DNA from: a candidate division CPR2 bacterium GW2011_GWC2_39_35
Lineage (GTDB): Bacteria; Patescibacteriota; CPR2
DNA: 64,000 bases
Reading direction: 5' to 3'
Assembly (NCBI GenBank): GCA_000995065.1
Contig: LBWX01000003.1
Span: forward strand, 153,284-217,283
Shown here: positions 14,790 through 63,651 of the stretch, one piece after another
Position numbering within the stretch: position 1 is the stretch's first letter
How the letters are laid out: each line of letters opens with the position of its first letter
Notes under the pieces: model-generated
The model's input: the letters and a program-made list of their open reading frames with translations, nothing else
Database searches by the model: none
Told to the model about the DNA's origin: nothing
Made by a program: the position numbers and the translations under genes

Positions 14790-14846
14790 GAGGGTGGAGA
14801 ACTTAAATCCCCGAATTTCAGGGCTCCGTTTCACTTCGCTCGAAGA
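14790..14846. repeat. dispersed intergenic repeat family (tattgttcgac ... gtggagaact ... cgtttcacttcgctcg), copy 1; related copies at 53120-53190 and partial at 23177-23193
   Basis: 16-mer cgtttcacttcgctcg present three times in window; copies 1 and 3 share additional upstream blocks. Confidence 0.6.
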
Positions 14847-14956
14847 GTAATTATGGGTCATTAATACCAAGTGCGAAATGCGTGATTAAAAGATCTAATA
14901 ACAGTCTTCATTCTAGTATTTTGCTTTTTTATCCACAACGATTATCCACAGAAAAA

Positions 14957-23122: not shown

Positions 23123-23176
23123 GTTTTAGTTCTCGACTTCGTTTTAGTTCTCGACTTCGTTTTAGTTCTCGACTTC
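23123..23176. repeat. tandem repeat: 3 perfect copies of 18-bp unit gttttagttctcgacttc, followed by a degenerate fourth copy gtttcacttcgctcgaac
   Basis: read directly in the 152-bp spacer between ABC permease and ATPase genes. Confidence 0.8.
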
Positions 23177-23246
23177 GTTTCACTTCGCTCGAACAGTATT
23201 TCCTATCGACCCATTGACCCATTAACCGATTCGCCAATTTGCCTAT

Positions 23247-41421: not shown

Positions 41422-42351
41422 ATGACAACTAACCTAATATCAATAGTCTCCCCCGTTTTTAATGAGCAGGAAGTTATTCAAGATTTTCTAAAAGAAACTC
41501 AAGAAAACTTAAAAAAAGATTCATATGAAATTATTCTTATTGATGACGGTTCCACAGACAATACTCCAGATATTTTAAAAGCCATTGTCGTCCAAAATCC
41601 CAAAATTAAAGCTATCCGCTTTACCCGAAACTTTGGCCAGCAAGCGGCAATCATGGCCGGACTCCGGATGGCCAATGGAAAAGCAATTATCGTGATGGAC
41701 TCTGACCTCCAAGACCCGCCTCAATATATTCCTCAACTAATTAAAAAATGGGAAGAAGGCTACAAAATTGTTTATGCCAAAAGACTTAAAAGGCGCGATT
41801 CTTTTTTAAAAAAATTCACTGCCTCAATTTTTTATAAGCTGCTTCATTTTCTAACCGATACTAAAATGCCAAAAAATACCGGCGATTTTTACCTCTTGGA
41901 CAGAAAAGTGGTAAACGAGCTTAAGCAGCTTCCCGAAAAGTTTCTTTATTTTAGAGGTCTTACAGGCTGGCTCGGATTTAAGCAATCAGAAATCGAAATA
42001 ATTCGACCTAAAAGAATGAAGGGAACAACCGGATATACTCTTAAAAAAATGATGCGCCTAGCAACAGACAGCTTGCTTTCCTTTTCCAATAAGCCCTTAA
42101 GAGCCATCACCTACCTCGGTATGATTGTTTTGATGACTGGCATAGTTTTAGGCTTGGCTCTTTTATTTAAAGCTTCTTTATTTAAAGAACAGACCTTATC
42201 TCCCATATTGCTTGTAACAATCATTATTCTTAGCGGCCTAAACCTCATCTCTTTAGGGATCATCAGCGAATATTTAAGCCGGATTTTTTTCCAAACCCAA
42301 GACCGGCCTCTTTATGTAATCGAAGAAACTTATGGTTTTAAAAAAGAGTAG
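41422..42351 (+). CDS. family 2 glycosyltransferase (polyprenyl-phosphate sugar synthase, DPM1/ArnC-like) with C-terminal TM helices
   Basis: 309 aa; ISIVSPVFNE, IILIDDGSTD, DSDLQD motifs; two C-terminal TM. Confidence 0.8.
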   Translation: MTTNLISIVSPVFNEQEVIQDFLKETQENLKKDSYEIILIDDGSTDNTPDILKAIVVQNPKIKAIRFTRNFGQQAAIMAGLRMANGKAIIVMDSDLQDPPQYIPQLIKKWEEGYKIVYAKRLKRRDSFLKKFTASIFYKLLHFLTDTKMPKNTGDFYLLDRKVVNELKQLPEKFLYFRGLTGWLGFKQSEIEIIRPKRMKGTTGYTLKKMMRLATDSLLSFSNKPLRAITYLGMIVLMTGIVLGLALLFKASLFKEQTLSPILLVTIIILSGLNLISLGIISEYLSRIFFQTQDRPLYVIEETYGFKKE

Positions 42352-43621
42352 AAAAGTTGGTATTATTGGCAGCGGTATCGCCGGCCTTGCTTGCGGCTAT
42401 TTTCTCTTAAAAGAAGGTTTTGAGGTTGTAATCTATGAAAAAGACCAAGAGCTTGGCGGGCTCCTTAAAACGACTACAACCCAAAAGAATGTTAGAATAG
42501 AAAAGTTTTATCATCATTTTTTTAAAACCGACACTGAACTTTTAGAATTAATAAAAGATATTGGACTAAACCCTAAGGTCATCTGGCAAAAAAGCACTGT
42601 TAGCTTTTACCGTAATCATCAATTCTCCAACTTAAATACTCCCCTAGACTTACTAAAACTGCCTTTTATATCTTTTACTTCAAGGTTAAGATTCGGCATC
42701 GCAACCTTAATCCTTAAACACGCTACCAATCTAAACAGATATGAGAGCATGACGGCTAAGGAACTCGTCAGTAGATGTTTTGGTAAAGATATTTGGGACA
42801 AAATTTGGTCTCCTTTGTTTGAAGGCAAGTTTGGAATATATAACGACAAAATTGGCGCCGCCTGGCTCTGGTCAAGAATTAAAACTCGAACTAGTTCCAG
42901 AAGAAACGGCAAAGAAACCCTGGGTTATATTAAAGGAAGCCTTTGGGAACTAGTGAGTGCCCTCAAGGAAAATATTAACAATAAAGGCGGCAAGATAATT
43001 ACCGGCAAAGAAATAAAAAGTATTCGTTCGTTAAAAGATAAGTTGATTATAGGAAACGAAGAGTTTGATTTTATAATAAGCACAATTCCCCTTAACGACT
43101 TCATAAAAATCGCTCCCCTTACTACCAAAGAAAAGGTTAGGCTCGGAGAAATTTCTTACCTCGGAGCTATCTCTACCTTAATCGAGTTAAAATCAAAACA
43201 AACAAATTATTATTGGAACAACGTCTTAGACTCTAAAATTCCCTTTAAAGGCATCATCGAGCACACAAATCTTGTAAGCCCCGAGGAATACAAAAATAGT
43301 CATCTACTCTATCTTAGCCATTATTTACCAAATAATTCTGCCTTCTTTAAGTCTAACGATAAAGAAATTAAAAATACTTATCTTAACTATCTGGAAGAAA
43401 TCATTCCAAACATCCGCAAAGTAGTAATTAGCATCCAAGTATTTAAAGAGAGTAATGCTCAACCGGTAATTTATAGTAATTTTAGACCGCTACATAATTC
43501 CACGTCTTTAAAAAACCTCTTTATGACGAGCATGGCGCATACTTATCCATTCGACCGGGGAATGAATGAAGCCATAAAAGAAGCAAAAAAAGTTGTAAGG
43601 CTAATAAATTCTGATAATTAA
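42332..43621 (+). CDS. FAD/NAD(P)-binding oxidoreductase (amine-oxidase / protoporphyrinogen-oxidase-like fold)
   Basis: 429 aa; N-terminal VGIIGSGIAGLACGYFL ... EKDQELGG dinucleotide-binding motif; overlaps GT2 gene by 20 nt. Confidence 0.65.
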   Translation: MVLKKSRKVGIIGSGIAGLACGYFLLKEGFEVVIYEKDQELGGLLKTTTTQKNVRIEKFYHHFFKTDTELLELIKDIGLNPKVIWQKSTVSFYRNHQFSNLNTPLDLLKLPFISFTSRLRFGIATLILKHATNLNRYESMTAKELVSRCFGKDIWDKIWSPLFEGKFGIYNDKIGAAWLWSRIKTRTSSRRNGKETLGYIKGSLWELVSALKENINNKGGKIITGKEIKSIRSLKDKLIIGNEEFDFIISTIPLNDFIKIAPLTTKEKVRLGEISYLGAISTLIELKSKQTNYYWNNVLDSKIPFKGIIEHTNLVSPEEYKNSHLLYLSHYLPNNSAFFKSNDKEIKNTYLNYLEEIIPNIRKVVISIQVFKESNAQPVIYSNFRPLHNSTSLKNLFMTSMAHTYPFDRGMNEAIKEAKKVVRLINSDN

Positions 43622-45094: not shown

Positions 45095-45187
45095 TTTTTT
45101 CGTCATTCCCGTGAAAACGGGAATCCGGGAAAGCTTGGGAAGGAATGGGGCATCTGGATTCCCACCTCCGCGGGAATGACGAAAAAG
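45095..45187. repeat. compound palindromic REP/MITE-like element (outer 17-nt perfect inverted arms tttttcgtcattcccg / cgggaatgacgaaaaa with internal hairpins)
   Basis: direct reading; core gtcattcccg / cgggaatgac shared with second copy at 60923-60983. Confidence 0.65.
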
Positions 45188-49844: not shown

Positions 49845-52052
49845 TTATTTAGATGCTTTTCGATATGCATTTATATTCTGAGAGTTCTGGCTTTTTTCGA
49901 TGCCGGTTTCCCAGGGAATAAAGAATCCAAAGGTACAACCTTTTCCTGGCTTACTATCAAAATAGATATTACCTTTATGGCCCTCTATAACTTCTTTTGC
50001 CAAAAAGAGACCAAGACCACTGCCATCCGGCCTTATTTGTTGGGCATTTGATCCCCTAAAGAATTTTTTAAATATATCTTTTTGTTGATCTCCCGGCACT
50101 CCAATTCCCGTGTCTTTAACAAGCACAATCATTCCCTTATCATCTTTGTCCACAACAACAGTAATCCCGCCATCTCTTGTATAAAAAATAGCATTTTCAA
50201 TAAAATTAGAGATTACCTGACCCATCTTTAACTTATCAATCATCATCTTCTTTCTCTTTCCAGTCAAAACTTCTAGTTTCAAGAATAACTGCCTCGACTC
50301 TGCCCTTTCCCTCAAATGAGCCACTTCCTCAGCCGCAATTTCCGCAATATCAATAAGTTCTCCCTGCATAAAGAATTTACCCGTATCAATCCTAGAAATA
50401 TTCAAAAGATCATCAATAAGCCTCTCCATTCGGGAGGTATTTAAATAAGCCTCCTGCATAGCATTGAGCTGTGTTACCGTCAGATCGCCGAAGTCTCCCT
50501 CCACAAGCATATGAAGATAACCCGCAATAGTGGTAAGCGGCGTTCTAAGCTGATGAGATGCCATTGCCAAAAACTGATCCTTTGCCTTATCCAATTCCTT
50601 TAAATGTTCATTAGCCCTTAAAAGTTTGGCCGTTGATTTTTCGACTTTTTCTTCTAGAGTACAGGCAAAATTTTTTATTTCTTCATATTGACAAGCATTC
50701 TGAATAGCCACGGTCAGCTGATTGGATAAAATATGTAATACTTTAATGTCCTCCGGGCTGTAACTTTCTCCGGATTTCTTATGCCCAATTAACATCACTC
50801 CGGCTAAATAAGATTTTGTTTTTAAAACAAAGCTTATCCCGCTGTCATATTTCTTAAGAAGCGCTTTTCTGGGATCTGAATCGGCTAACTCGTATTCATC
50901 AAGAAGCATCTTTGTCTTAAGCATGTCAAATTCTTTAGGTGTTAGTTTTATTAGCTTTCCGAATCCAACTGCGTAAGTATCTTTTAAGTTACCTTGCTCG
51001 TCGGCAATAGCAAATAAGATACGAGAAGTTTTGATGGTAATCTCAAGCGCTCTAAATACCTTGAACAAAATTTCATGAAGTATTATTGTTGAGCTTATTT
51101 CTTCGCCGATTTCATTTAGAAATTCTTCTGACCGATATTGATTTTTGAAGAAGAACTTGTCCGTAATCTTGGCAATGAAGATTTTTATTGGCTGAAAAGA
51201 AAAAATTAGAACTAATACCACGGCAATGCGAAAAATCTGATGCCCGATGCTCACCTCTTCGCCAAAGACCAAAACATTTGCGGCATATATAAAAGCGGTA
51301 TATGCAATTGCAAGAGTCATAACAAGAAGAAAGAAAGCAAATGACTTGACAAAAATTACCTTAATGTCTATCAGACGATGCTTTACAATAGCATATGCGG
51401 TAAAGCTCAAGAAAATGAGCGCTGAGTAATTGCCGATTGCCCAGAATTGGGGAATTCCCTGAAAAAAGGGCAAAATGACGTTAAAAATAAGATTTGCCAA
51501 AACCCACACGAAGAAACCAAATAGAAAATAAACGAGCTTAGCTCTTGCATTAGCTTTAGATTTAAAATAATTTACCAAAAAACGATAGGCAATATATAGA
51601 AACCAAAAAAATATCAATGAGAAATAAGCATATGCGCCCTTCCCCAAAACAGGAATAGCTCCATACTGCGTTACCGCCATGTTTTTTACCATGAAATTGC
51701 CGGAAATAGAAATAGTAAATAAAAAAAGGCTCGAAAATATTAAAAAGAAATCCATTTTAATATTTTTCTTGTATTCCTGTAAAAAAGAAGTAGAAAAAAA
51801 ATAGAAGGGGATAAAGAAAAGAGCGACAACACCATATGCAATTCTACCCCAAAGCGGATCCGTAGTAATAAAAATAGAATTTCCTAAATAACATGCAAGG
51901 ATCCACAAGAACAAAAAAAGCGAGGTCCAGAAAAAAAATACGTTCACCTTGAGTCTCGAGTTCGAGGAAAGAACCCAAAAACCGAGCCCCAAACAAAGTA
52001 TTCCAACTACGATTGTCAATATTGCGTTAATCAAAAAAAATGTTTCTGCCAT
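49845..52052 (-). CDS. sensor histidine kinase with N-terminal multi-TM (7TMR-type) sensor, GAF-like linker, HisKA and HATPase_c domains
   Basis: 735 aa; ~8 TM; H-box MASHQLRTPLTTI; G-boxes DTGIGVP.. GSGLGL. Confidence 0.8.
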   Translation of the reverse strand: MAETFFLINAILTIVVGILCLGLGFWVLSSNSRLKVNVFFFWTSLFLFLWILACYLGNSIFITTDPLWGRIAYGVVALFFIPFYFFSTSFLQEYKKNIKMDFFLIFSSLFLFTISISGNFMVKNMAVTQYGAIPVLGKGAYAYFSLIFFWFLYIAYRFLVNYFKSKANARAKLVYFLFGFFVWVLANLIFNVILPFFQGIPQFWAIGNYSALIFLSFTAYAIVKHRLIDIKVIFVKSFAFFLLVMTLAIAYTAFIYAANVLVFGEEVSIGHQIFRIAVVLVLIFSFQPIKIFIAKITDKFFFKNQYRSEEFLNEIGEEISSTIILHEILFKVFRALEITIKTSRILFAIADEQGNLKDTYAVGFGKLIKLTPKEFDMLKTKMLLDEYELADSDPRKALLKKYDSGISFVLKTKSYLAGVMLIGHKKSGESYSPEDIKVLHILSNQLTVAIQNACQYEEIKNFACTLEEKVEKSTAKLLRANEHLKELDKAKDQFLAMASHQLRTPLTTIAGYLHMLVEGDFGDLTVTQLNAMQEAYLNTSRMERLIDDLLNISRIDTGKFFMQGELIDIAEIAAEEVAHLRERAESRQLFLKLEVLTGKRKKMMIDKLKMGQVISNFIENAIFYTRDGGITVVVDKDDKGMIVLVKDTGIGVPGDQQKDIFKKFFRGSNAQQIRPDGSGLGLFLAKEVIEGHKGNIYFDSKPGKGCTFGFFIPWETGIEKSQNSQNINAYRKASK

Positions 52053-52058
52053 TTTTAT

Positions 52059-53033
52059 TTAGCTCTTGCTTACTATTTGTAATATTAATAATTTTTCTAA
52101 TTTTTGTCCCAATTCTCTTATTTCGATTAAGTCTTTAATGTCCTTTTTGCCGCTAATATCCTTGTAGCACTCATCCCAAACATTCATTAACTTTTCTTCT
52201 AGCCTATCTCTTTTTATCTTCGCTATAAGTTCTTCACTACTTATTGCTTCCAAATTATCGACGTCTAAAATATTAGAATCCAGCGCATAAGCAAAAATCA
52301 AGCTTGTCAAATCCTTCTCGTCTATTTCCCTTTCCCACGTACTGATCCAATTTCCAATCCTGCCCATCTTCTGTGCCTTTAGAATTATGTCTCTTATTTC
52401 TTTTAATTCTTTAGGCGTTAATCTGCCGTTTCCGGCCATTAATTCCATAATATTATAAAGCATCATTTGCATCGAGCATGGAAAATAAGTCCAGTAATTT
52501 TCCGCGCTTATTAAAAAAGGGTGGCTGCTCACTAAAATAGCAAATCTCATAGAATTAAATATCTGGTCAATTTCAAAGCTAAGAATGTTTTTAAAATCGC
52601 TATAAAAAGGAAAATTGGCTATTTTTTTATTAATATGCCGAAAAATATCTAAAGCAAATGTCGAAAGAGTATCTAAATTTTCCCTCCCTAAATAATTATC
52701 GTTAGAAATAGCTTTGTATATTTCTTCTAAAAGCTCGCTGTCTTTTTTTAAATCCGCAATATCGTCTATGATGACGACAAACATACTGAATAAAAATTTT
52801 GCTTCCTCAACGTCTTTTTCATAGCTTTTATCATAATCAACAAAAGGAGAGACATTTTTAATAACACAATAGGTAAACGGCCATATTATGTTACTTCTTA
52901 CTCCGCCGGCCTTTACGTATTCATCCACCCATTTTTGAATGTTTTGAGGTAAAGGCACGCTCATCATGTTATCTAACTCAGACCTGATACTTTCCGGACT
53001 TAGTTTCGATTTTATTTCTTCGATTTTCCTCAT
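52059..53033 (-). CDS. class I terpene synthase-like protein (putative terpene cyclase)
   Basis: 324 aa all-alpha; DDIAD (aa 90-94) and NWISTWERE (aa 228-236; N..T...E = NSE/DTE motif), 138-aa spacing as in bacterial sesquiterpene synthases. Confidence 0.5.
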   Translation of the reverse strand: MRKIEEIKSKLSPESIRSELDNMMSVPLPQNIQKWVDEYVKAGGVRSNIIWPFTYCVIKNVSPFVDYDKSYEKDVEEAKFLFSMFVVIIDDIADLKKDSELLEEIYKAISNDNYLGRENLDTLSTFALDIFRHINKKIANFPFYSDFKNILSFEIDQIFNSMRFAILVSSHPFLISAENYWTYFPCSMQMMLYNIMELMAGNGRLTPKELKEIRDIILKAQKMGRIGNWISTWEREIDEKDLTSLIFAYALDSNILDVDNLEAISSEELIAKIKRDRLEEKLMNVWDECYKDISGKKDIKDLIEIRELGQKLEKLLILQIVSKS

Positions 53034-53119
53034 AAATATATTTTATCATTTTAAAGCTACCGCTGAAACCAAAAAAACGTAAACAACTTTTTTCGTTCAT
53101 CTTTCGCTACTTGTGTGCT

Positions 53120-53190
53120 TACATATTGTTCGACCTTGTGGAGAACTGCATTAAAGTACTTCTAGACCACGTTTCACTTCGCTCGCCATA
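53120..53190. repeat. dispersed intergenic repeat family, copy 3
   Basis: atattgttcgaccttgtggagaactgcattaaag...cgtttcacttcgctcg. Confidence 0.6.
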
Positions 53191-53390
53191 CCATCCGTAT
53201 GGGAAGAAAAAAGCAACTGCTCAACCCCATCGTCATTGCGAGGAGTTCATACGACGAAGCAATCTCGCTCCAGTTCCAGACAAAGATCGCCACGCTCATT
53301 TCATTCGCTGAGGGTGACAGTTGTGAGCAGTTACGAATAAAATAGGTAGTTTAGGTGTCAAATGCGAAAGTCGCGTTCAGTAGTATTGGA

Positions 53391-53912
53391 TCAATTGGAT
53401 ATTGTATTTAAACTTTCTAACCTCTCTAGAGCAATAATAAACCACGGCGTATATTTATCCGGATTCTCTTCCATGTCTTTTTTGAGATCATTAATGTTTA
53501 CCCATTTCCAATCTGCTACTTCCTCTTTAACGGGTTTCACGTCTCCATCATACTCCCCGATTAAAGTGGCGCAAACCTCGGACTCCGCTCCCACATCTTT
53601 ATAGGCGGCATGGTACTGAAACTTATCTGCCATTTTCAGTTTGCAGGTAAATCCTAATTCGTCCAACAATCTTCTTTCCCCTGCCTTCTCATAACTTTCA
53701 TTCTCCCTTGGATGGCTGGCACAGGTATTGTCCCATATAAGAGGCCAAAGCATTTTTTTCTCGCTTCTTTGCTGAATCAAAAGTTCACCCTTTTTATTAA
53801 AAATAAAATCTGCAAAAGCCCGATGAAGCTTTCCTTCATCCAGATGCGCTTTTACTTTTTCTTCCAATCCAATATTTTTGTCGTTTTCATCAACCAGTAT
53901 TACCTTTTCCAT
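53391..53912 (-). CDS. idi: isopentenyl-diphosphate delta-isomerase, type 1 (Nudix fold)
   Basis: 173 aa; HRAFADFIFN, NTCASHP Cys motif and WKW/E-rich catalytic region typical of IDI-1. Confidence 0.8.
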   Translation of the reverse strand: MEKVILVDENDKNIGLEEKVKAHLDEGKLHRAFADFIFNKKGELLIQQRSEKKMLWPLIWDNTCASHPRENESYEKAGERRLLDELGFTCKLKMADKFQYHAAYKDVGAESEVCATLIGEYDGDVKPVKEEVADWKWVNINDLKKDMEENPDKYTPWFIIALERLESLNTISN

Positions 53913-53913
53913 T

Positions 53914-54945
53914 TTATTTTTCCCTCTCGATTACAAAATTTGCAAGACCGGATAAAAGTTCCCGCCACTCATTTTTCGGCAAACTCTTAAGCTCGCCCCT
54001 GGCTTTTTCGACATAATTTCTAGCGATCTTGGCGGCTTTTTCTTTAGCTTTAGTTTTTTTAATTAATTCGATCACTTTTTTTACTTCGCCCTCTGTGACC
54101 GGATGATTGCTGTTTAAAACGCCATGAATTTTTTCTTTATCCTCGGCACTTAATTCCTCCAAAGCTAGAAGGATCACCACGTTGCCTAGTTTTTTTTCAA
54201 TAATATCTTTGCCGACCTTTTTGCCAAACGATTTTTCATCCGCAAAAATATCCAAAATGTCATCTTGAACCTGGAAGGCCATTCCCAAATTAAAACCATA
54301 ATTTCCAAGCATCAAAATTTCCTGCCAGTGTCCGCCGGCACAAATTCCGCCAGCTTCACAACTAGCCTTTAGCAAAACAGCCGTTTTTTTACTTATCATT
54401 TCAAAATAGTCTTCTTTAGAAATGTTTTTATACCTGTTTTTTGTAACAAAAGGCTCGTTCTCCCGTCCGGAACGCTCAAACGAAACATCAGTAATCTCAC
54501 CATCAGCAATTGCCTTTAGGGTTTTAGCTAGAAGCTCTGTTAGTCTAGAAACATTGGGAGATTTATTTGCACCCTGAAAAACAGAAACTGCATAATCTAT
54601 TCCGGCACACTGTGCCATGGAATTTCCGTATTTTGCCCAAACGGTCGGCTCATTCCTTCTAAAATCGCTGTGGTCGATCATGTCGTCTATAATAAGAGTG
54701 TAATTATGAAGGATTTCTAACGATGCGGCCGCATGAATGACATCTTCCAGCTTTCCTCCCAAACAAAGACAAGAAGCAATGGCCAGACCCGGTCTAATTC
54801 TTTTTCCCCCAACCTTCATTTGGTGATCCAAAAGCTCATGATTTCTTGCACCAACACCATCGTTTAAAAGATCTAAAATTACCGGATCAACCGCTTGGCT
54901 CCACTGGGTCAAATAAGTTTTTACGCTTTCTTTAGTAATAGGCAT
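53914..54945 (-). CDS. short-chain polyprenyl diphosphate synthase (FPP/GGPP synthase-like)
   Basis: 343 aa; first DDxxD LIIDDMIDHSDFRR with Tyr at -5, second QVQDDILD. Confidence 0.85.
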   Translation of the reverse strand: MPITKESVKTYLTQWSQAVDPVILDLLNDGVGARNHELLDHQMKVGGKRIRPGLAIASCLCLGGKLEDVIHAAASLEILHNYTLIIDDMIDHSDFRRNEPTVWAKYGNSMAQCAGIDYAVSVFQGANKSPNVSRLTELLAKTLKAIADGEITDVSFERSGRENEPFVTKNRYKNISKEDYFEMISKKTAVLLKASCEAGGICAGGHWQEILMLGNYGFNLGMAFQVQDDILDIFADEKSFGKKVGKDIIEKKLGNVVILLALEELSAEDKEKIHGVLNSNHPVTEGEVKKVIELIKKTKAKEKAAKIARNYVEKARGELKSLPKNEWRELLSGLANFVIEREK

Positions 54946-54957
54946 ATTTTTCCTTTC

Positions 54958-57135
54958 CTACGGTGTCGTAACCAGCATTCTTTTCTTTGGATCTGCCTTT
55001 ATTATAGATTTTATCGGAATTCTAAAGCCAAAAACCGAACCCTTGGAACTAGACCTAAAGATTATCTCGCCGCCATGATCTTCCACTACCCTTTTAGCCA
55101 AATAAAGGCCAAGGCCATTACCATCCGGACGCAAGCGCCTGGCGTTATCCGCCCTGTAGAATTTAGAGAACAATTTATTTTGCACTTCTTTTGGAACACC
55201 AATGCCGGTATCAATTACCTCAAAGACAAATTCGTGTTTATTGGCCGCGGCTCTTACAGTCACTCCGCCCTTTTCTGTATAATAAATCGCATTATCAATA
55301 AAGTTCATTATGACCTGACGAATCTTATTCTCATCGGCCTGAACGGTTGACATCTTTTTAGGGCACTCAAACTTAAGCCACAAGTTTTTGGTTCTAGCCT
55401 GATGCGCTAATTGTTTAACTTCATCAGCAATCATAACTTTCATATCAAGATCCTTGGGATCGATAAAGAATTTGCCCGTACTCATTCTGGACACATTTAG
55501 AAGATCATTAATTAAAGTCACCATCTTATTAGCGCCCTGAAATGCCTCATTTATAAAGTCAAACTGGCCAACCTTGATTTCTCCCGCATCCCCTTCTAAA
55601 AGCATGGATAAATAACCCTTAATAGCTGTAAGCGGAGTGCGCAGCTGATGAGATGCCATGGAGATAAACTCATCTTTTGCCTTGTCAAGTTCTTGCAGAT
55701 GGTCGTTAGCTTCGCGAAGTTTTTTGGTCTGACGCAAAACCTCCGCCTTCAAGGTGATGTTAAACTTCTGGATTTCCTCATACTGCTTGGCCCGCTGCAT
55801 CGCCATGGTAATTTCCGGCTCCACAATCTCTAAAATCTGGATATCTTTTGCCGCATACATATCCCCCGACTTTTTTTCACCCAAGAACAAAATGCCGGCA
55901 AATTGGTGATCCTCCATAAGCCTAACGGCTACCGAAGTCTCATATCTTCTTAAAATAGATTTGAGCCTGCTTCCTTCTTCTAATTCGTCATATACTGCAA
56001 TTGGAAAGCGGCTTAGATATTTAATGTCGCCGTATTCAACTTCCGGCGCTTTTTTGTAACCGATAGACTGAACAGAATGAATATGCCCTTCCTCTACTAC
56101 TACAAACATGCCTTCTAATATTTTAAATTGCTGCAAAATATGATCTAAGCTTTTATAAAGAAGCTCGGTTAAGACGATATTGGTACTTAAGATATGGTTA
56201 GTTTCCCTAAGAAAAGCATCCGGATCATACTGCTCTTTAAAGAAAATTTTATCCGTAACTTTGGTAAGAAATCTCCGTAATGGCTGAAAGGTAAAGGCCA
56301 TTACCATGGCAAGAATGATTTGGATGATTGTATGCGTCATAGAATAACCCTGCTCCGGAAAAAACAATCTCTGAACTGCAAAAATCGTAGTAGCATAACC
56401 CCCGGCAAGAATGATGACAAGCAGCGTATATGCCAAAGATTTGGCAACCACCATCCGAATGTCCATAAGACGATGTTTAACAATGGCGTAGGCTATGCCA
56501 CCAATCATAAAAACAAAACCATAAATCCCTAAACGATTAACTGTTTCATTAACTATCAACAGCCTAGGTATGATTAGGTTAGTTGAAATTGCAATTGTCG
56601 CAGATAAAGATAACCCCATTGTTATATAAAGTAATTGCGACCTAGCCACTCCTCGAGAAGAAGACAATTTTTTAATAAGAATAGTGATTCCCACAAGAGA
56701 TAAGGCAATTAACATGACAGAATAAATAATAAATAAAGGACCCTCTTGAAAATCTATGCCCATATCTTTAGAAAAATGTACGCTCTCAATAATGTACGAT
56801 GAATAAGCTAATCCAGAAAAAACAATTGAAGCTATTAACGATACTATCCAAAGAGTATTCTTTATCTTACTCTCAGACTGAAAAACCAAGCAGAAAGAAA
56901 AAAAGGTAAACGATGTGATTAGACCAAATGCAAAATCTGTCCTTACAAGATAACTAACTAAAGCAACATTCAATGTCTCGCTTTCAAAAAAAATAACCAA
57001 TGACCAAATAGATAACGCTAGTGTAAGCAAGAAGAAGATAAGGTTGGAGGGTTTTTTTGAATTTCTAGAAAAAACCAGGAGACCAAGAAACAAATTTAGA
57101 GAGACCGCTATAATTAAAAGCGCATAACTAATCAT
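54958..57135 (-). CDS. sensor histidine kinase, paralogue of 49845-52052 (multi-TM sensor + GAF-like + HisKA + HATPase_c)
   Basis: H-box MASHQLRTPLTAI; same architecture; start set at MISYALL (ORF-track start 57171 overlaps upstream gene). Confidence 0.8.
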   Translation of the reverse strand: MISYALLIIAVSLNLFLGLLVFSRNSKKPSNLIFFLLTLALSIWSLVIFFESETLNVALVSYLVRTDFAFGLITSFTFFSFCLVFQSESKIKNTLWIVSLIASIVFSGLAYSSYIIESVHFSKDMGIDFQEGPLFIIYSVMLIALSLVGITILIKKLSSSRGVARSQLLYITMGLSLSATIAISTNLIIPRLLIVNETVNRLGIYGFVFMIGGIAYAIVKHRLMDIRMVVAKSLAYTLLVIILAGGYATTIFAVQRLFFPEQGYSMTHTIIQIILAMVMAFTFQPLRRFLTKVTDKIFFKEQYDPDAFLRETNHILSTNIVLTELLYKSLDHILQQFKILEGMFVVVEEGHIHSVQSIGYKKAPEVEYGDIKYLSRFPIAVYDELEEGSRLKSILRRYETSVAVRLMEDHQFAGILFLGEKKSGDMYAAKDIQILEIVEPEITMAMQRAKQYEEIQKFNITLKAEVLRQTKKLREANDHLQELDKAKDEFISMASHQLRTPLTAIKGYLSMLLEGDAGEIKVGQFDFINEAFQGANKMVTLINDLLNVSRMSTGKFFIDPKDLDMKVMIADEVKQLAHQARTKNLWLKFECPKKMSTVQADENKIRQVIMNFIDNAIYYTEKGGVTVRAAANKHEFVFEVIDTGIGVPKEVQNKLFSKFYRADNARRLRPDGNGLGLYLAKRVVEDHGGEIIFRSSSKGSVFGFRIPIKSIIKADPKKRMLVTTP

Positions 57136-57721
57136 AAACAATTCCTCGTCTCCAATTTTTAACATAAACATTCTGAATTTGGTTTTGCTTATCAGGAAAT
57201 TTTGAATTACTAATTATATCGATAGCCTTTTTTTCAACACCTTTATATTTTAACTGTAATACATTTATTAATTCATTGCCAACAAAACCTTTTCCTTTAC
57301 TCTGATGATAGAAATTTAAATAACTATAATCTAATAGCCCTAGCCTTAAAAAGTACCACACAGATATGAGCAAAGAACAAGGAATATGACCCTCTTTATT
57401 ACTAATATAACTTAAGTAACTTCTTTTTGCTTTACCTTCGTTTATTAATTCAAAAAAAGGCTCTTTAAGCTTAACTAGCTCGGACTCAAATAGTACAAAA
57501 TCTGGCATAACGTTTGAATGCTCGAGATTGGATAAGTACTTATCTATGTTTAATTTCTGCCTTGTCGGATTATAATCATCAATTAAAAGTGCTAGACTAT
57601 AAGACAAACCTTTTTCGCCAATACTTATGGTTATGTCCTTAACTGCCGGGATCATACCATGAGAACGAATATTTTTTTCATCAATATAAATATGAGCAAA
57701 CTCAATGCTAAAACTTTCCAA
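57128..57721 (-). CDS. hypothetical protein
   Basis: 197 aa ORF, no recognisable motif. Confidence 0.4.
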   Translation of the reverse strand: MESFSIEFAHIYIDEKNIRSHGMIPAVKDITISIGEKGLSYSLALLIDDYNPTRQKLNIDKYLSNLEHSNVMPDFVLFESELVKLKEPFFELINEGKAKRSYLSYISNKEGHIPCSLLISVWYFLRLGLLDYSYLNFYHQSKGKGFVGNELINVLQLKYKGVEKKAIDIISNSKFPDKQNQIQNVYVKNWRRGIVYD

Positions 57722-58894
57722 TTATTTGCCTCCCAAAATTAGCTTAAGCAAAAATTGGTTAGTTGCTGCTTTTTCAAATAACCAACCCCAAAATTTAGGA
57801 AAAGGAAATGAATAAAAGGGATTTGTTGCCTTAAATAAAACACCATAATTACCACTTTCTTTGTCTCCAACAAAACCATTTTCAACTAGCCTAACTTTCT
57901 CTAATCCGAAAGATTCATACATCCGAATTTGCGGGTCAAGCGCAACCTCTTTACCATCCTTTATAATTCTCTTGCTATAATATTCCTCTGGAGTCATTTC
58001 CTGTCTAAACTTATGAAAGTCTGGCATTCTACCACTAAAATATGCCATTTTTTTGCGTTCTGCTATTAATTTCCTCCCCGCCGCCGCAAAAAGCCTATCT
58101 ACCAATTCCAAACCTCTAACGTCAGGGCTTGTTGTTAATGCAACACCATAAACATACCTACCGTTAGAATCAAATGTAGTATCAAGTGTCCCATTATCAG
58201 TTGAGTCCTCCCAAGATGTAAAATCCTTAATTCCTTTATTGGTAGGCATTAGGCTTAAAATTCCTTTAACTTTTCCATCCATATCAGCAACAAAAAACCA
58301 TTCTTTACTATTTTCTATCCTTTTTCCCATCATCTCCCCAGTAGCCGTAACTTCTTTAGAAATGTCACCATACCTATCATTATCAACCTCTAGTATGTCC
58401 TCCAGATCTGATATTTTAACATTTCTTATAATAACTTTTTTTCTATTGAAAATCCTATTGAATTCTAGCGGAATGCTTGCTATTAACAAAACAATAGATA
58501 GTTCAACAAATAGTAATGAAGAGATTAAAGGAGGCAACTTATCCCATCCACTAACCAATAGATAGGCTGGAGGAACAAAAGCAGCTATCCTGTTCAACGT
58601 AAATCCCGTATACACTAACTCATTTTCGAATGTTACGTTCTGAAAATCTAAATTAAAAATATGATTAAGGCGCAATTTTATAATACCACTACCAAGAATC
58701 ATTAAAATAATGCCGATATTAAAAAAAATCTCACTAATAATTAATATGGTTAAAAAAAACATTGGATCAATACCGTATTGCTCATTAACAACGTTAAAAC
58801 CTTTTACAATAATTTCAAAAACTAGCCAACCAATGATAACAAGGGTTGTTAACAATACTATCTTTGAAAGTCTTTTATTTTTCCCTAGTTTCAT
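57722..58894 (-). CDS. membrane protein (4 N-terminal TM) with C-terminal GNAT-like acyltransferase-type domain (tentative)
   Basis: 390 aa; hydrophobic N-terminal third; C-terminal YVYGVALTTSPDVRGLELVDRLFAAAGRK block reminiscent of GNAT motif A. Confidence 0.4.
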   Translation of the reverse strand: MKLGKNKRLSKIVLLTTLVIIGWLVFEIIVKGFNVVNEQYGIDPMFFLTILIISEIFFNIGIILMILGSGIIKLRLNHIFNLDFQNVTFENELVYTGFTLNRIAAFVPPAYLLVSGWDKLPPLISSLLFVELSIVLLIASIPLEFNRIFNRKKVIIRNVKISDLEDILEVDNDRYGDISKEVTATGEMMGKRIENSKEWFFVADMDGKVKGILSLMPTNKGIKDFTSWEDSTDNGTLDTTFDSNGRYVYGVALTTSPDVRGLELVDRLFAAAGRKLIAERKKMAYFSGRMPDFHKFRQEMTPEEYYSKRIIKDGKEVALDPQIRMYESFGLEKVRLVENGFVGDKESGNYGVLFKATNPFYSFPFPKFWGWLFEKAATNQFLLKLILGGK

Positions 58895-58930
58895 AAATAA
58901 ATCTGGTTACTTTCATTATTTTTTTATTTA

Positions 58931-58995
58931 TACTCATGCCCAATCTCCCTCGCTATCTCTGACCACTAGCAAATCACGCACTATTTCTTCCATCA
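58931..58995. repeat. ~65-bp direct repeat copy A (degenerate duplicate of the 3' end of plsC); partner at 60280-60345
   Basis: tactcatgcccaatctc + cgctatctc + gcactatttcttc blocks shared with 60280-60345. Confidence 0.6.
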
Positions 58996-59424: not shown

Positions 59425-59835
59425 ATGAAATTTGCGGTTGCTACAAAAGCTGTTATCTTAAATCCAAAAGGAGAAGTTTTAATACTAGTAAAGAGCAATA
59501 AAGATGAAATTAACCCGAAAACTGCCGATATCCCTGGAGGACGTCTAAAATTCAGCGAAAAAATTGAAGATTGCTTAAAAAGGGAAATTGAGGAAGAAAC
59601 TAGTATAAAAGAGATCAATATCATAGCACCTTCCAAAACATGGAGCCTAATAAAAGATGATATGCATCTTGTAGGAATCACGTTTGCTGTAACTACTAAT
59701 ACCTATGAAGTTAAGACAAGCTTTGAACATGAAAGCTTTTCTTGGCTATCGCCAGAAGAAATTTTAGAAAGCAATCTTTCGGATTGGATAAAAGAAGAAG
59801 TGAGGGCAGCATTAAAAATAGCCAGCCAAAACTAA
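59425..59835 (+). CDS. Nudix hydrolase
   Basis: 136 aa; Nudix box GGRLKFSEKIEDCLKREIEEETS. Confidence 0.75.
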   Translation: MKFAVATKAVILNPKGEVLILVKSNKDEINPKTADIPGGRLKFSEKIEDCLKREIEEETSIKEINIIAPSKTWSLIKDDMHLVGITFAVTTNTYEVKTSFEHESFSWLSPEEILESNLSDWIKEEVRAALKIASQN

Positions 59836-59879: not shown

Positions 59880-60155
59880 TTATGCCATCTCCGGCATTTG
59901 AATGAATTTCCTAATTTTTTTTATCTCTAGACCTTGTTCATCTTGCCGTTCAATAACAGCATTTAGTTTTCTTTCTATTCTATCATTGCTCATTTCTAAA
60001 TTCTCAACCCTTTTTTCTAACCCACCCATACTATGCTCTAATTTATCCATTCTGTTCTCTAACCCGTCCATCTTATCTTCCAAACGAACAATATGCGGCA
60101 AGACAACTTGCTCGAAACCTTCGTTAAATAAATTAATCATCTCTTTCTTATCCAT
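59880..60155 (-). CDS. small coiled-coil protein with repeated LE..M(D/E)KLE heptads
   Basis: 91 aa; LEDKMDGLENRMDKLEHSMGGLEKRVENLEMSNDRIERKL. Confidence 0.45.
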   Translation of the reverse strand: MDKKEMINLFNEGFEQVVLPHIVRLEDKMDGLENRMDKLEHSMGGLEKRVENLEMSNDRIERKLNAVIERQDEQGLEIKKIRKFIQMPEMA

Positions 60156-60263: not shown

Positions 60264-60884
60264 CTAAGTTTTGTGCTCGTACTCATGCCCAATCTCACGC
60301 GCTATCTCAGGCATTAAGATGTCGTGCACTATTTCTTCGGGTGTTTTGTCAGCAATTTCTTTATAGGAAATCGGTTCCAAGAATTTAACCCTACAAATCC
60401 GCTTTATTCTGGGAAACTTATGATGCCTTCCAAAAACGTGATGCGAATTTTCTATAGCTACAGGCAAAATATCTACCTGATTTTGCAGAGCCATTCTAGC
60501 CACGCCCCTATATGCCTTAAGCGGTTTTCCATCGTAGCTCCTGGTTCCTTCCGGGAAAAGAACTAAGATATGGCCTCTTCCTAAAACATCAGCCGCTGCC
60601 TGATAAACCATCTTCTTATCTTTACTAAAACGATCCACCTTTATTTGTCCGGTTATACGCATAATAAACCTAAAGAAAGGGTTTCTATAGATCCAGTCTG
60701 CCGCCAAAAAGAAAAGTCTTCTTCTAACCGCCGCACCAAGAAATGCAAAATCCAAATAACTCGCGTGATTAGCTGCAATTATAATCGGCCCCTTTCTGGG
60801 AATATTATGCTTTCCCTCAACCCTTTCTATCCAAAAAAGTTTAATCAGGGGGCTTAAAAGAATTTTTAGAACTCGATACAGCAT
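60264..60884 (-). CDS. plsC: 1-acyl-sn-glycerol-3-phosphate acyltransferase
   Basis: 206 aa; NHASYLD (HX4D) and FPEGTRS motifs. Confidence 0.8.
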   Translation of the reverse strand: MLYRVLKILLSPLIKLFWIERVEGKHNIPRKGPIIIAANHASYLDFAFLGAAVRRRLFFLAADWIYRNPFFRFIMRITGQIKVDRFSKDKKMVYQAAADVLGRGHILVLFPEGTRSYDGKPLKAYRGVARMALQNQVDILPVAIENSHHVFGRHHKFPRIKRICRVKFLEPISYKEIADKTPEEIVHDILMPEIAREIGHEYEHKT

Positions 60885-62578: not shown

Positions 62579-62980
62579 TTGGTCATGAAATCAACCGGAC
62601 TATCAACCAAAATAAACGAAAAAAGAAAGAAGCAACCCCTGCACCGAAGCTTTCAAAGTGCTTTTAGAGGCATAAAACACGGCACGGAAGAGCGTAATTT
62701 CTTGATCCATTTATTTTTTGGTTTTTTAGCCATCAGCCTTTCTTTTGTCTTTAACTTAGATTTAATCGAAAAAACTATCATTGTGGTTCTAACCGCTCTT
62801 GTCTTGGGGGTAGAGCTCATCAATTCCGCCATCGAAAGATCTTTAGATTTTATAACTACCGAGCATCACCCCGAAATTGCTAAAATTAAGGAGCTGATGG
62901 CCGCTGTAGTTTTAGTGTTTGTTGTAGCTGCCTTTGTTGTAGGTGTCCTCATCTTCTCAAAAGCAATATTTCTTAAATAA
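62579..62980 (+). CDS. dgkA: diacylglycerol kinase family (DgkA-type; could be undecaprenol kinase)
   Basis: 133 aa; EERNFLIHL catalytic-region motif, three TM. Confidence 0.7.
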   Translation: MVMKSTGLSTKINEKRKKQPLHRSFQSAFRGIKHGTEERNFLIHLFFGFLAISLSFVFNLDLIEKTIIVVLTALVLGVELINSAIERSLDFITTEHHPEIAKIKELMAAVVLVFVVAAFVVGVLIFSKAIFLK

Positions 62981-62982
62981 TT

Positions 62983-63651
62983 ATGAGAAAAAAATATTTA
63001 AAAAAGTTTCTTGTAGATTCGTTAATTATTATCACGGCAATTATCGTAACGCTTGCCGTAATCGTTCATGTTTTCCCGGTTTTATCTATTGATGTCGAGA
63101 TTTCTAGAAAAATTCAGGAGAACGGTGGTTCAATCCTTCTTGAGGCCATGAAGCTTATTAGTATGTTTGGAAATGCCGCCGGATTGCTTACGACGGTAGC
63201 TTCAGCTTCCGCCATTTTTTATTTTTTTTCTTATCGCCGAGAGGCATTATTTCTCATTTCAACCATAGCCGTAGATGCTGCAACGCTGGCTATAAAATAT
63301 ATTGTCAACCGTCCCCGGCCCGATTCCAGTCTGGTTAGCATCTATGCCAAGGTTACGGACCCTGGCTTTCCAAGCGGACATGTTGTACATTACACCGTTT
63401 TTTTCGGCCTGATTTTTGTTTTCATGCTGCGCCTTAAGAAAATTCCTATACTCACCCGAATTCTTATAAGCTATATTTGCCTTAATCTGATTTTTTTAGT
63501 ACCGATTTCCAGAATTTATCTGGGCGTACACTGGCTTACCGACGTTATCGGCGGATATTTAGTAGGACTGTCTTTTCTTATTGTGCTGCTATACTTATAT
63601 TTTTATCCTAAGACTTTAAAAAAGCTATCCAAGAGATTTGACATTAAATAA
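62983..63651 (+). CDS. PAP2-family membrane phosphatase (phosphatidate / undecaprenyl-diphosphate phosphatase-like)
   Basis: 222 aa; KYIVNRPRP, PSGH and later H/D-containing C3 region (YLGVHWLTD) = PAP2 motifs. Confidence 0.75.
   Translation: MRKKYLKKFLVDSLIIITAIIVTLAVIVHVFPVLSIDVEISRKIQENGGSILLEAMKLISMFGNAAGLLTTVASASAIFYFFSYRREALFLISTIAVDAATLAIKYIVNRPRPDSSLVSIYAKVTDPGFPSGHVVHYTVFFGLIFVFMLRLKKIPILTRILISYICLNLIFLVPISRIYLGVHWLTDVIGGYLVGLSFLIVLLYLYFYPKTLKKLSKRFDIK

Follow-up and report, generated by a model that had tools for sequence, protein, structure and literature searches.

Described terpene synthases and the TSL locus

Bacterial terpene synthases are treated as secondary-metabolite enzymes and are found with Pfam or antiSMASH models. 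A synthase can stand beside a signalling gene: in 2-methylisoborneol (2-MIB) synthase operons, its neighbours are genes for a cyclic-nucleotide-binding (CNB) regulator and a prenyl-diphosphate methyltransferase. Here we analyse a terpene-synthase-like (TSL) protein encoded in a 64,000-nucleotide stretch (hereafter the window) of contig LBWX01000003.1 from candidate division CPR2 bacterium GW2011_GWC2_39_35, a Rifle groundwater member of the Candidate Phyla Radiation (CPR; PRJNA268031; GCA_000995395.1, GCA_001771115.1). The TSL gene is directly followed by that of a membrane sensor histidine kinase, HK1 (aa, amino acids; TM, transmembrane):

52059 to 53033, minus strand: TSL, 324 aa, a non-canonical protein with a class-I terpene-synthase fold, on which the finding centres
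52752 to 52766, minus strand: DDIAD, TSL residues 90-94, the DDxx(D/E) metal-binding motif
52326 to 52352, minus strand: NWISTWERE, TSL residues 228-236, with the NSE-type triad N228/T232/E236
49845 to 52052, minus strand: HK1, the TSL partner, a polytopic (about 8 TM) sensor histidine kinase of 735 aa with HisKA and HATPase_c domains
50526 to 50561, minus strand: the HK1 H-box ASHQLRTPLTTI with the phospho-acceptor His500, invariant in an alignment of 13 kinases

In our assessment, there is an even chance that TSL is a catalytically active, sequence-divergent class-I terpene synthase that forms one functional unit with HK1, a signalling-metabolic module.

TSL has the fold and the metal motifs of the canonical bacterial class-I terpene synthases (PF19086), and it is only 7-14% identical to those of known structure (7ZRN, 10-epi-cubebol; 3KB9, epi-isozizaene; 4OKM, selinadiene synthase; 6OH6, LrdC). 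It differs from them in failing the Pfam threshold, in lacking the sensor arginine and the Arg-Tyr (RY) pair and in having a signature of its own, and also in its systematic linkage to histidine kinases and its fusions with DXS, PilZ or REC (receiver) domains. To our knowledge, neither kinase linkage nor fusions of these three kinds are known for canonical terpene synthases, and a literature search for terpene synthases in connection with Patescibacteria, CPR, PilZ, histidine kinases, REC or DXS fusion found nothing relevant. The 2-MIB operons are similar in that the synthase gene adjoins a signal gene, and some CPR TSL loci also have an S-adenosylmethionine (SAM) methyltransferase gene upstream; in these operons, however, the regulator is soluble and of CNB/Crp type, the synthase is a canonical PF19086 protein, and there are no REC, PilZ or DXS fusions. 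In the non-canonical classes IB (BalTS), IC (AsR6), ID, IE and IF (PMC11234867), as in TSL, a class-I fold is hidden from standard sequence annotation and can be found only by predicted structure. In these classes, most of which are known from actinomycetes and Bacillus, other motifs (DYLDNLxD; D(N/D), ND, RXXKD) stand in place of the canonical ones (Abe et al., 2024; PMC11234867), whereas TSL retains DDxxD and an NSE-type triad and occurs, with its signalling linkage, in CPR, Planctomycetota and other lineages. Membership of TSL in the published classes ID, IE or IF is ruled out on motifs and taxonomy. A precedent for a terpenoid lipid that influences a membrane histidine kinase is provided by Bacillus subtilis YisP, a protein of class-I isoprenoid fold acting on farnesyl diphosphate (FPP), whose lipid product is linked to the membrane microdomains harbouring KinC (PMC6454102). 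Unlike TSL, YisP is squalene-synthase-like, is not adjacent to kinC and has neither a conserved operon nor domain fusions, and its link to the kinase is indirect, via flotillin microdomains.

The earlier note on this DNA had proposed a class-I terpene-synthase-like protein at 52059-53033, and the structural comparison agrees: TSL is modelled by AlphaFold2 (AF2) with a pLDDT of 90 and a pTM of 0.89, and the top 50 Foldseek matches of this model in the Protein Data Bank (PDB) are all class-I terpene cyclases, a strong similarity to the class-I terpenoid synthase fold. The metal motifs are present too. In class-I terpene synthases, a triad of the form (N/D)Dxx(S/T)xxxE lies about 140 residues after DDxx(D/E); in TSL, the triad N228-xxx-T232-xxx-E236 sits 138 residues after D90, the second position being W or L, not D.

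The family is large. A word-indexed homolog search gave only 12 matches, a count superseded when 1.84 billion representatives were searched exhaustively with a profile; this recovered 743 representative clusters (at 50% identity), 386 of them at E<=1e-30, spread over CPR, Planctomycetota, Verrucomicrobiota, haloarchaea and many soil and sediment lineages. Over 160 retrieved members sharing <=50% identity, the metal ligands are nearly invariant (D90 98%, D91 99%, D/E94 99%, N228 100%, T232 98%, E236 99%), as are R46 (99%), R214 (98%), R225 (93%), R235 (96%) and D241 (99%); these values are unchanged in fusion proteins, and the metal-binding residues are also intact in haloarchaeal and Verrucomicrobiota members without a neighbouring kinase. 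Because the ligands are conserved so nearly perfectly across such divergence, a working diphosphate-Mg2+ site is suggested, and most simply catalysis. The family signature comprises G44xR46, W51, R214, QxMxRIGNxxxTWxRExxxxD and a C-terminal SRGxK. No NCBIfam model matches TSL. Pfam Terpene_syn_C_2 (PF19086) is reached at E<=0.01 by 31 of 94 single-domain family members (best 2.3e-7), and since this is a third of these relatives we take the family, from its sequences, to be a distant homologous branch of the terpene synthases and not a case of fold convergence.

Kinase linkage, domain fusions and a proposed direction of signalling

A scan of species-representative genomes yielded 24 loci, mostly from Patescibacteria, 18 of which extend past the TSL gene. 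In 18/18 Patescibacteria loci (L001-L018), the gene after TSL, on the same strand, encodes a kinase with an HK1-orthologous membrane domain, 30-44% identical to the N-terminal membrane domain of HK1; the gap between the two genes is -4 to +28 nt (6 nt in the window), and the same order is seen again in a further locus (L124). TSL and HK1 are probably translationally coupled. Isoprenoid genes are frequent neighbours: an isoprenyl diphosphate synthase (IDS) or isopentenyl-diphosphate isomerase (IDI) gene adjoins the TSL-kinase pair in 7 of the 18 loci, with IDS upstream of TSL in three (L006, L009, L013) and a second IDS type downstream in four. A flavoprotein resembling geranylgeranyl reductase (GGR) is encoded directly upstream of TSL in three CPR loci, and a SAM methyltransferase in L001 and L002, with a third copy about 4 kb upstream in L017. 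Receivers are rare among the 18, one standing alone after the kinase in L018 and one lying 2.6 kb away in L017. In three Paceibacterota loci (L011 9763-18228, L014, L015), a TSL-HK(GAF)-IDS set lies immediately upstream of the division and cell wall (dcw) cluster (MraZ, MraW, a small open reading frame (ORF), a penicillin-binding protein and MurE). Two loci with CPR-type gene content, L001 and L010, come from metagenome-assembled genomes (MAGs) labelled Lysobacteraceae and Methanosarcinales; the prolyl-tRNA synthetase of L010 is 59% identical to that of the window, and the two labels are probably binning errors.

The earlier note had tied the arrangement to reduced genomes, which proved too narrow, as Planctomycetota and many lineages known from soil and sediment metagenomes likewise have the domain linked to histidine kinases. 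These contexts were read from six members and 79 further metagenome loci, with neighbourhood counts taken from simple ORF calling and from phmmer labels based on seeds; the TSL ORF was called in 68/79, and as the caller sometimes chose antisense ORFs in high-GC contigs, this figure and the kinase fractions are conservative. The recurring order is (DXS-)TSL, [FAD reductase, IspH], hybrid kinase, REC-HATPase_c, IspH, TodX. A kinase gene occurs within the next 3 genes in 26 of the 31 loci with >=3 kb of downstream sequence and in 17 of the 18 with >=6 kb; IspH and a TodX/FadL channel for hydrophobic compounds are each encoded in 13 of these 18 well-covered loci. The non-CPR kinases are polytopic with 5-7 TM segments. 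Like the linked kinases of CPR, they are intramembrane sensors and have no large periplasmic domain. The non-CPR hybrid kinases (L044-L106; e.g. L068, in the ORF after 801-1715, L081 and L083) have in common a distinctive N-terminal domain of 5-7 TM segments with the start HYILxMMIxTRLxGSxGGLLVIYYVELTL, apparently a membrane sensor domain that has not been described before; in nearly every case a REC-HATPase_c protein of some 350-390 aa comes next.

TSL is also joined to other domains in one polypeptide. An N-terminal extension is present in 63 of the 160 retrieved members, and in 43 of these 63 it is DXS or a degenerate DXS-like domain; P0068, from a Phycisphaerae MAG, is a complete DXS followed by TSL and is annotated only as "DXS". 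PilZ, confirmed with Pfam, is found on at least 5 extended members (e.g. P0050), one of which is a REC-PilZ-TSL protein (P0048) whose gene is followed by a hybrid kinase gene. Rarer are one fusion to RibB (DHBP synthase) and one to a GGR-like flavoprotein (P0070; P0064 and L039 958-3075); the GGR-TSL locus has no kinase nearby. We know of no dedicated C-terminal terpene-synthase-fold domain described on DXS. Feedback by IPP (isopentenyl diphosphate) and DMAPP (dimethylallyl diphosphate) acts on the catalytic domain of DXS, the first MEP-pathway enzyme, via monomerisation (Di et al., PMC10203381), and a DXS-TSL fusion could place a link between prenyl diphosphates and DXS in a single polypeptide.

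How might TSL and the kinase work together? In the mechanism that we favour, TSL would hold a prenyl diphosphate at a trinuclear Mg2+ site formed by DDxxD and N228/T232/E236 and ionise it to a lipophilic terpenoid, the substrate in the window being a C15 or C20 diphosphate supplied by the neighbouring short-chain IDS and IDI. The two-component pathway would control TSL as its output: in CPR, the TSL gene holds the position of a response regulator gene upstream of the kinase, which suggests that the kinase pathway controls TSL, and REC-PilZ and PilZ proteins of other lineages have TSL as their C-terminal domain, as expected of an output. The hydrophobic product could then act in the membrane or cross it. 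A feedback loop would be compatible with this scheme, in that the intramembrane sensor might also perceive the TSL product; such product sensing in the membrane is possible because the linked kinases are consistently intramembrane-sensing. The partners (DXS, IspH, IDS and IDI; GGR-like reductase and methyltransferase; the channel) fit the making, tailoring and releasing of a terpenoid under signal control. Of the ideas in the earlier note, the one most strengthened by the wider evidence is that the terpenoid product is regulated or tied to signalling.

A number of observations weigh against this scheme. The window TSL itself stays below the Terpene_syn_C_2 cut-off (E = 0.0019, 18.4 bits against 23.7), and neither the single sequence nor the family profile has a meaningful match among PDB sequences. 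Canonical enzymes have a pyrophosphate-sensor Arg some 46 residues upstream of the triad. The family has none conserved there: there is no conserved basic column at positions 165-213, and the nearest conserved Arg is R214, at -14. Also missing is the C-terminal RY pair, canonically about 80 residues after the triad. The C-terminal SRGxK of the family is absent in the window subclade, and the window TSL may for this reason not be the best family representative. By phmmer, the 7TM domain of HK1 has no similarity to the membrane domains of the non-CPR TSL-linked kinases, and the lack of detectable homology between the two sets of sensor domains argues against a single conserved terpenoid-binding pocket. 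No response regulator, as the earlier note had remarked for the window, and no gene of the mevalonate (MVA) or methylerythritol phosphate (MEP) pathway lies in the window or within 10 kb past either of its ends (about 84 kb of the source contig), so that signalling partner and precursor supply are undocumented for the source organism. The case for catalysis is built from sequence and a predicted structure, and the DXS fusions would be easier to explain for a regulatory domain that binds prenyl diphosphates than for an enzyme acting far downstream.

This last point leads to an alternative that we regard as doubtful and yet worth weighing. Proteins that dock on kinases have precedents in PII on NtrB and PhoU on PhoR; TSL could similarly be a (nearly) non-catalytic sensor of prenyl diphosphates (IPP, DMAPP, FPP or longer) that docks on the kinase or controls the fused DXS, in a module for isoprenoid homeostasis. 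The prevalence of DXS or DXS-like partners among extended members would make sense for such a sensor, as DXS controls flux in the MEP pathway and is allosterically feedback-regulated by IPP and DMAPP (PMC10203381), and so would the clusters in which dxs and ispH paralogs are found together with the kinase. The absence of the pyrophosphate-sensor Arg and of the RY pair, both belonging to catalytic closure, would also be accounted for, and the kinase sensor domains vary between branches while TSL stays constant, as if TSL were the real sensor. Pseudo-enzymes, however, usually lose some of their catalytic residues, and the TSL metal ligands are 98-100% conserved; many of the DXS-like partners are degenerate where TSL is intact; REC-PilZ-TSL would consist of three inputs and no output; and TodX, GGR-like reductases and SAM methyltransferases imply that a hydrophobic product is made, modified and moved.

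The kinase linkage could also have a more conventional explanation, which we consider unlikely: TSL would be an ordinary isoprenoid enzyme of envelope or lipid metabolism, for example a maker of membrane terpenoids or a hydrolase like YisP, which converts FPP to farnesol with a class-I fold (PMC6454102), and the kinase would be a transcriptional regulator acting via an unlinked response regulator. The three CPR loci with TSL-HK-IDS next to the dcw cluster point in this direction, as do the PlsC, DgkA and PAP2 genes that flank the window block and the stand-alone receiver after the kinase in L018. Adjacency of a kinase to its target is normally far less conserved than adjacency of a kinase to its regulator; here, the TSL-kinase pairing holds in 18/18 CPR loci and an adjacent receiver in only 1-2/18. 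The near-zero or overlapping gene gaps exceed what shared transcription calls for, and the REC-TSL and PilZ-TSL fusions point to post-translational control. The conventional explanation does not account for this far stronger adjacency of TSL and kinase.

The other modules of the block and their surroundings

In the window, TSL and HK1 are part of seven consecutive minus-strand ORFs (49845-58894), which were found where the earlier note had placed them and which are identical across several independent assemblies. Besides the pair, the block contains:

53914 to 54945, minus strand: IDS, a short-chain-type trans-isoprenyl diphosphate synthase (Pfam polyprenyl_synt, PF00348, 2.2e-57)
53391 to 53912, minus strand: IDI, a type-1 (Nudix) isopentenyl-diphosphate isomerase (NCBIfam equivalogs)
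53034 to 53390, no strand: the IDI-TSL intergenic spacer, 357 nt, a lineage-specific insertion
53160 to 53195, no strand: one of three copies of a short repeat dispersed between genes (core CGTTTCACTTCGCTCG, 36-nt family), here within the spacer
54958 to 57135, minus strand: HK2, a HisKA_7TM sensor kinase, 725 aa as called in public assemblies (HisKA_7TM 2e-16, HisKA, HATPase_c)
57128 to 57721, minus strand: hyp197, a 197-aa hypothetical protein of no Pfam or NCBIfam family, overlapping the HK2 start by 8 nt
57722 to 58894, minus strand: a membrane-anchored GNAT-fold protein of 390 aa, with an N-terminal helical TM region and the GNAT domain from about residue 154

A bulky aromatic residue at position -5 before the first aspartate-rich motif (FARM) is the mark of a short-chain product under the chain-length rule. 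In the window IDS, Tyr82 stands at -5 (YTLIIDDMID) before the FARM DDMID (87-91), the second aspartate-rich motif (SARM) being DDILD (228-232), and an aromatic residue is present at -5 in all 7 TSL-linked CPR IDS genes. The best NCBIfam models are IdsA (short chain; 238 bits against a cut-off of 468), an encapsulin cargo polyprenyl transferase and GGPP_syn (195 against 500); all matches are below the equivalog cut-offs, and long-chain models score lower. The IDS product is thus predicted to be of short-chain (C15/C20) type, in line with the earlier note and not with a long-chain enzyme. The Nudix-type isomerase is likewise borne out, IDI being of type 1 and above two equivalog cut-offs (NF002995, 157.3 bits against 127; TIGR02150, 136.7 bits against 105.8). 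What we do not retain is the view that such genes are unexpected in such a genome: type-1 IDI is universally distributed in CPR, where isoprenyl diphosphate synthase (IPPS) genes are syntenic with MVA genes (Hoshino & Gaucher, 2018; PMC6107057), and an IDS-IDI pair is to be expected in CPR.

HK1 and HK2 are full-length paralogs (36.5% identity), each with about 8 TM segments by hydropathy, with HisKA and HATPase_c domains and with near-identical H-boxes (ASHQLRTPLTTI and ASHQLRTPLTAI), as had been noted before; the longest ORF of HK2 reaches 57171. HK2 matches HisKA_7TM (PF16927) with 61 bits against a cut-off of 28.6 and HK1 has no match at E<=0.1; HK1 does align with the orthologous kinases that follow TSL, 8/13 of which match this family. 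The "GAF-like linker" attributed to the two kinases is weakly supported: the HK1 linker matches GAF_2 only at E = 0.069, and it is the aligned region of three orthologs that matches GAF at 4e-7.

Upstream of HK2, the protein described earlier as a membrane GNAT-like protein has no Pfam match itself; 5 of its 15 homologs match Pfam GNAT families, and its AF2 model (pLDDT 79 overall, >90 in the C-terminal domain) has as best Foldseek matches the GNAT-like domains of CurA and GphF (E 2e-9, TM-score 0.84 on the target), so the description stands. Its GNAT domain is nearer to the decarboxylating/loading GNAT-like domains of CurA, GphF and SxtA than to simple N-acetyltransferases. The trio of membrane GNAT protein, hypothetical protein of about 195 aa and HisKA_7TM kinase (54958-58894), with PlsC upstream, recurs in a relative sharing 64% identity (L123, 6642-10584), where the hyp197 counterpart has 192 aa and the same position. 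Because the trio is kept separately in L123 and only TSL-HK1 is universal, the block is three modules side by side, membrane GNAT/hyp197/HK2, IDS-IDI and TSL-HK1: the first is a separate module, and IDS-IDI is housekeeping that happens to adjoin. The picture of a single cassette bracketed by two kinases accordingly gives way to a lineage-specific juxtaposition. The cassette order does recur: L009 has exactly IDS-IDI-TSL-HK, and L006 and L013 have IDS-(x)-TSL-HK.

The gap between IDI and TSL, described earlier as a structured spacer of about 360 bp, is real. Its structure is another matter: the fold energy is unremarkable (z = -1.42, equalled by 7 of 100 shuffles), Rfam gave no meaningful match, and the spacer is absent in relatives, IDI abutting TSL in L009 and IDS lying 11 nt from TSL in L013. 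At 41.7%, its GC content is the highest among the long intergenic gaps of the window, and the repeat CGTTTCACTTCGCTCG that it carries has three copies in the window, all of them intergenic (53160-53195, 14817-14852, 23166-23201). A riboswitch or small RNA in the spacer is ruled out by the z value, the Rfam result, the absence in relatives and the dispersed repeat. This repeat-bearing insertion just upstream of TSL, together with the sub-threshold Pfam score and the SRGxK-less subclade, is what could be cited for chance juxtaposition with a decayed, non-functional relic of secondary metabolism. We regard this as highly improbable: at least 4 independent assemblies contain the same intact ORF, all signature residues are present in TSL, its model is of high confidence, and dozens of independent loci, highly diverged, show the linkage again; synteny and conservation effectively refute it.

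Beside the block lie genes for PlsC, a DgkA-type diacylglycerol/undecaprenol kinase and a PAP2 phosphatase (60264-60884, 62579-63651); the IDS product may be shared by these genes, which serve the recycling of lipids and polyprenol phosphates. Between the two copies of a 40-nt direct repeat (58920-58959 and 60269-60308; 83% identity) lies a 1.35-kb segment that holds a Nudix gene (59425-59835, plus strand) and a DUF7310 gene (59880-60155, minus strand). In L123, PlsC directly adjoins the GNAT gene without this segment, which looks like an insertion footprint duplicating the 3' end of PlsC. Farther away, a GT2 glycosyltransferase gene overlaps by 20 nt that of a 429-aa protein of the flavin amine-oxidase family (Amino_oxidase/NAD_binding_8; 41422-43621), and the intergenic region 45096-45186 contains a 31-nt inverted repeat (TTTTTCGTCATTCCCGTGAAAACGGGAATCC / GGATTCCC...GGGAATGACGAAAAA; 84% complementary, 29-nt loop) that looks like a repetitive extragenic palindromic (REP) or miniature inverted-repeat transposable element (MITE)-like sequence. 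A near-complete glycolysis and fermentation supercluster occupies one strand at 197-20714 (POR subunits, ADP-forming acetyl-CoA synthetase, PfkB, iPGM, enolase, PPDK, FBA, TIM, PGK and GAPDH).

A possible role of a terpene-synthase fold in bacterial signalling

As a tentative proposal, TSL could be the enzymatic output of an unrecognised signalling pathway, in which a polytopic kinase, joined in some lineages by REC and c-di-GMP/PilZ inputs, would activate a terpene synthase whose small hydrophobic product leaves the cell (through TodX in diderms) as a diffusible or volatile signal or serves as a membrane effector, possibly being sensed back by that intramembrane kinase. The gene clusters suggest a hemiterpene where only DXS and IspH are present, and a C15 or C20 product where there is an IDS. 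In episymbiotic CPR, the terpenoid could be a cue exchanged with the host cell.

Models of the Pfam or antiSMASH type miss most of the TSL family: the window protein has no annotation, and fusions with DXS bear only the label "DXS". Its near-obligatory pairing with kinases and its fusion to REC, PilZ and DXS would make it the first terpene-synthase-fold domain in two-component or c-di-GMP signalling. TSL as a sensor would be the first domain dedicated to prenyl-diphosphate sensing that controls the MEP pathway. If it is catalytic, terpenoid production would be gated by signals, possibly yielding volatile or membrane-active signals, and this also in ultra-small symbionts that have few regulatory systems.

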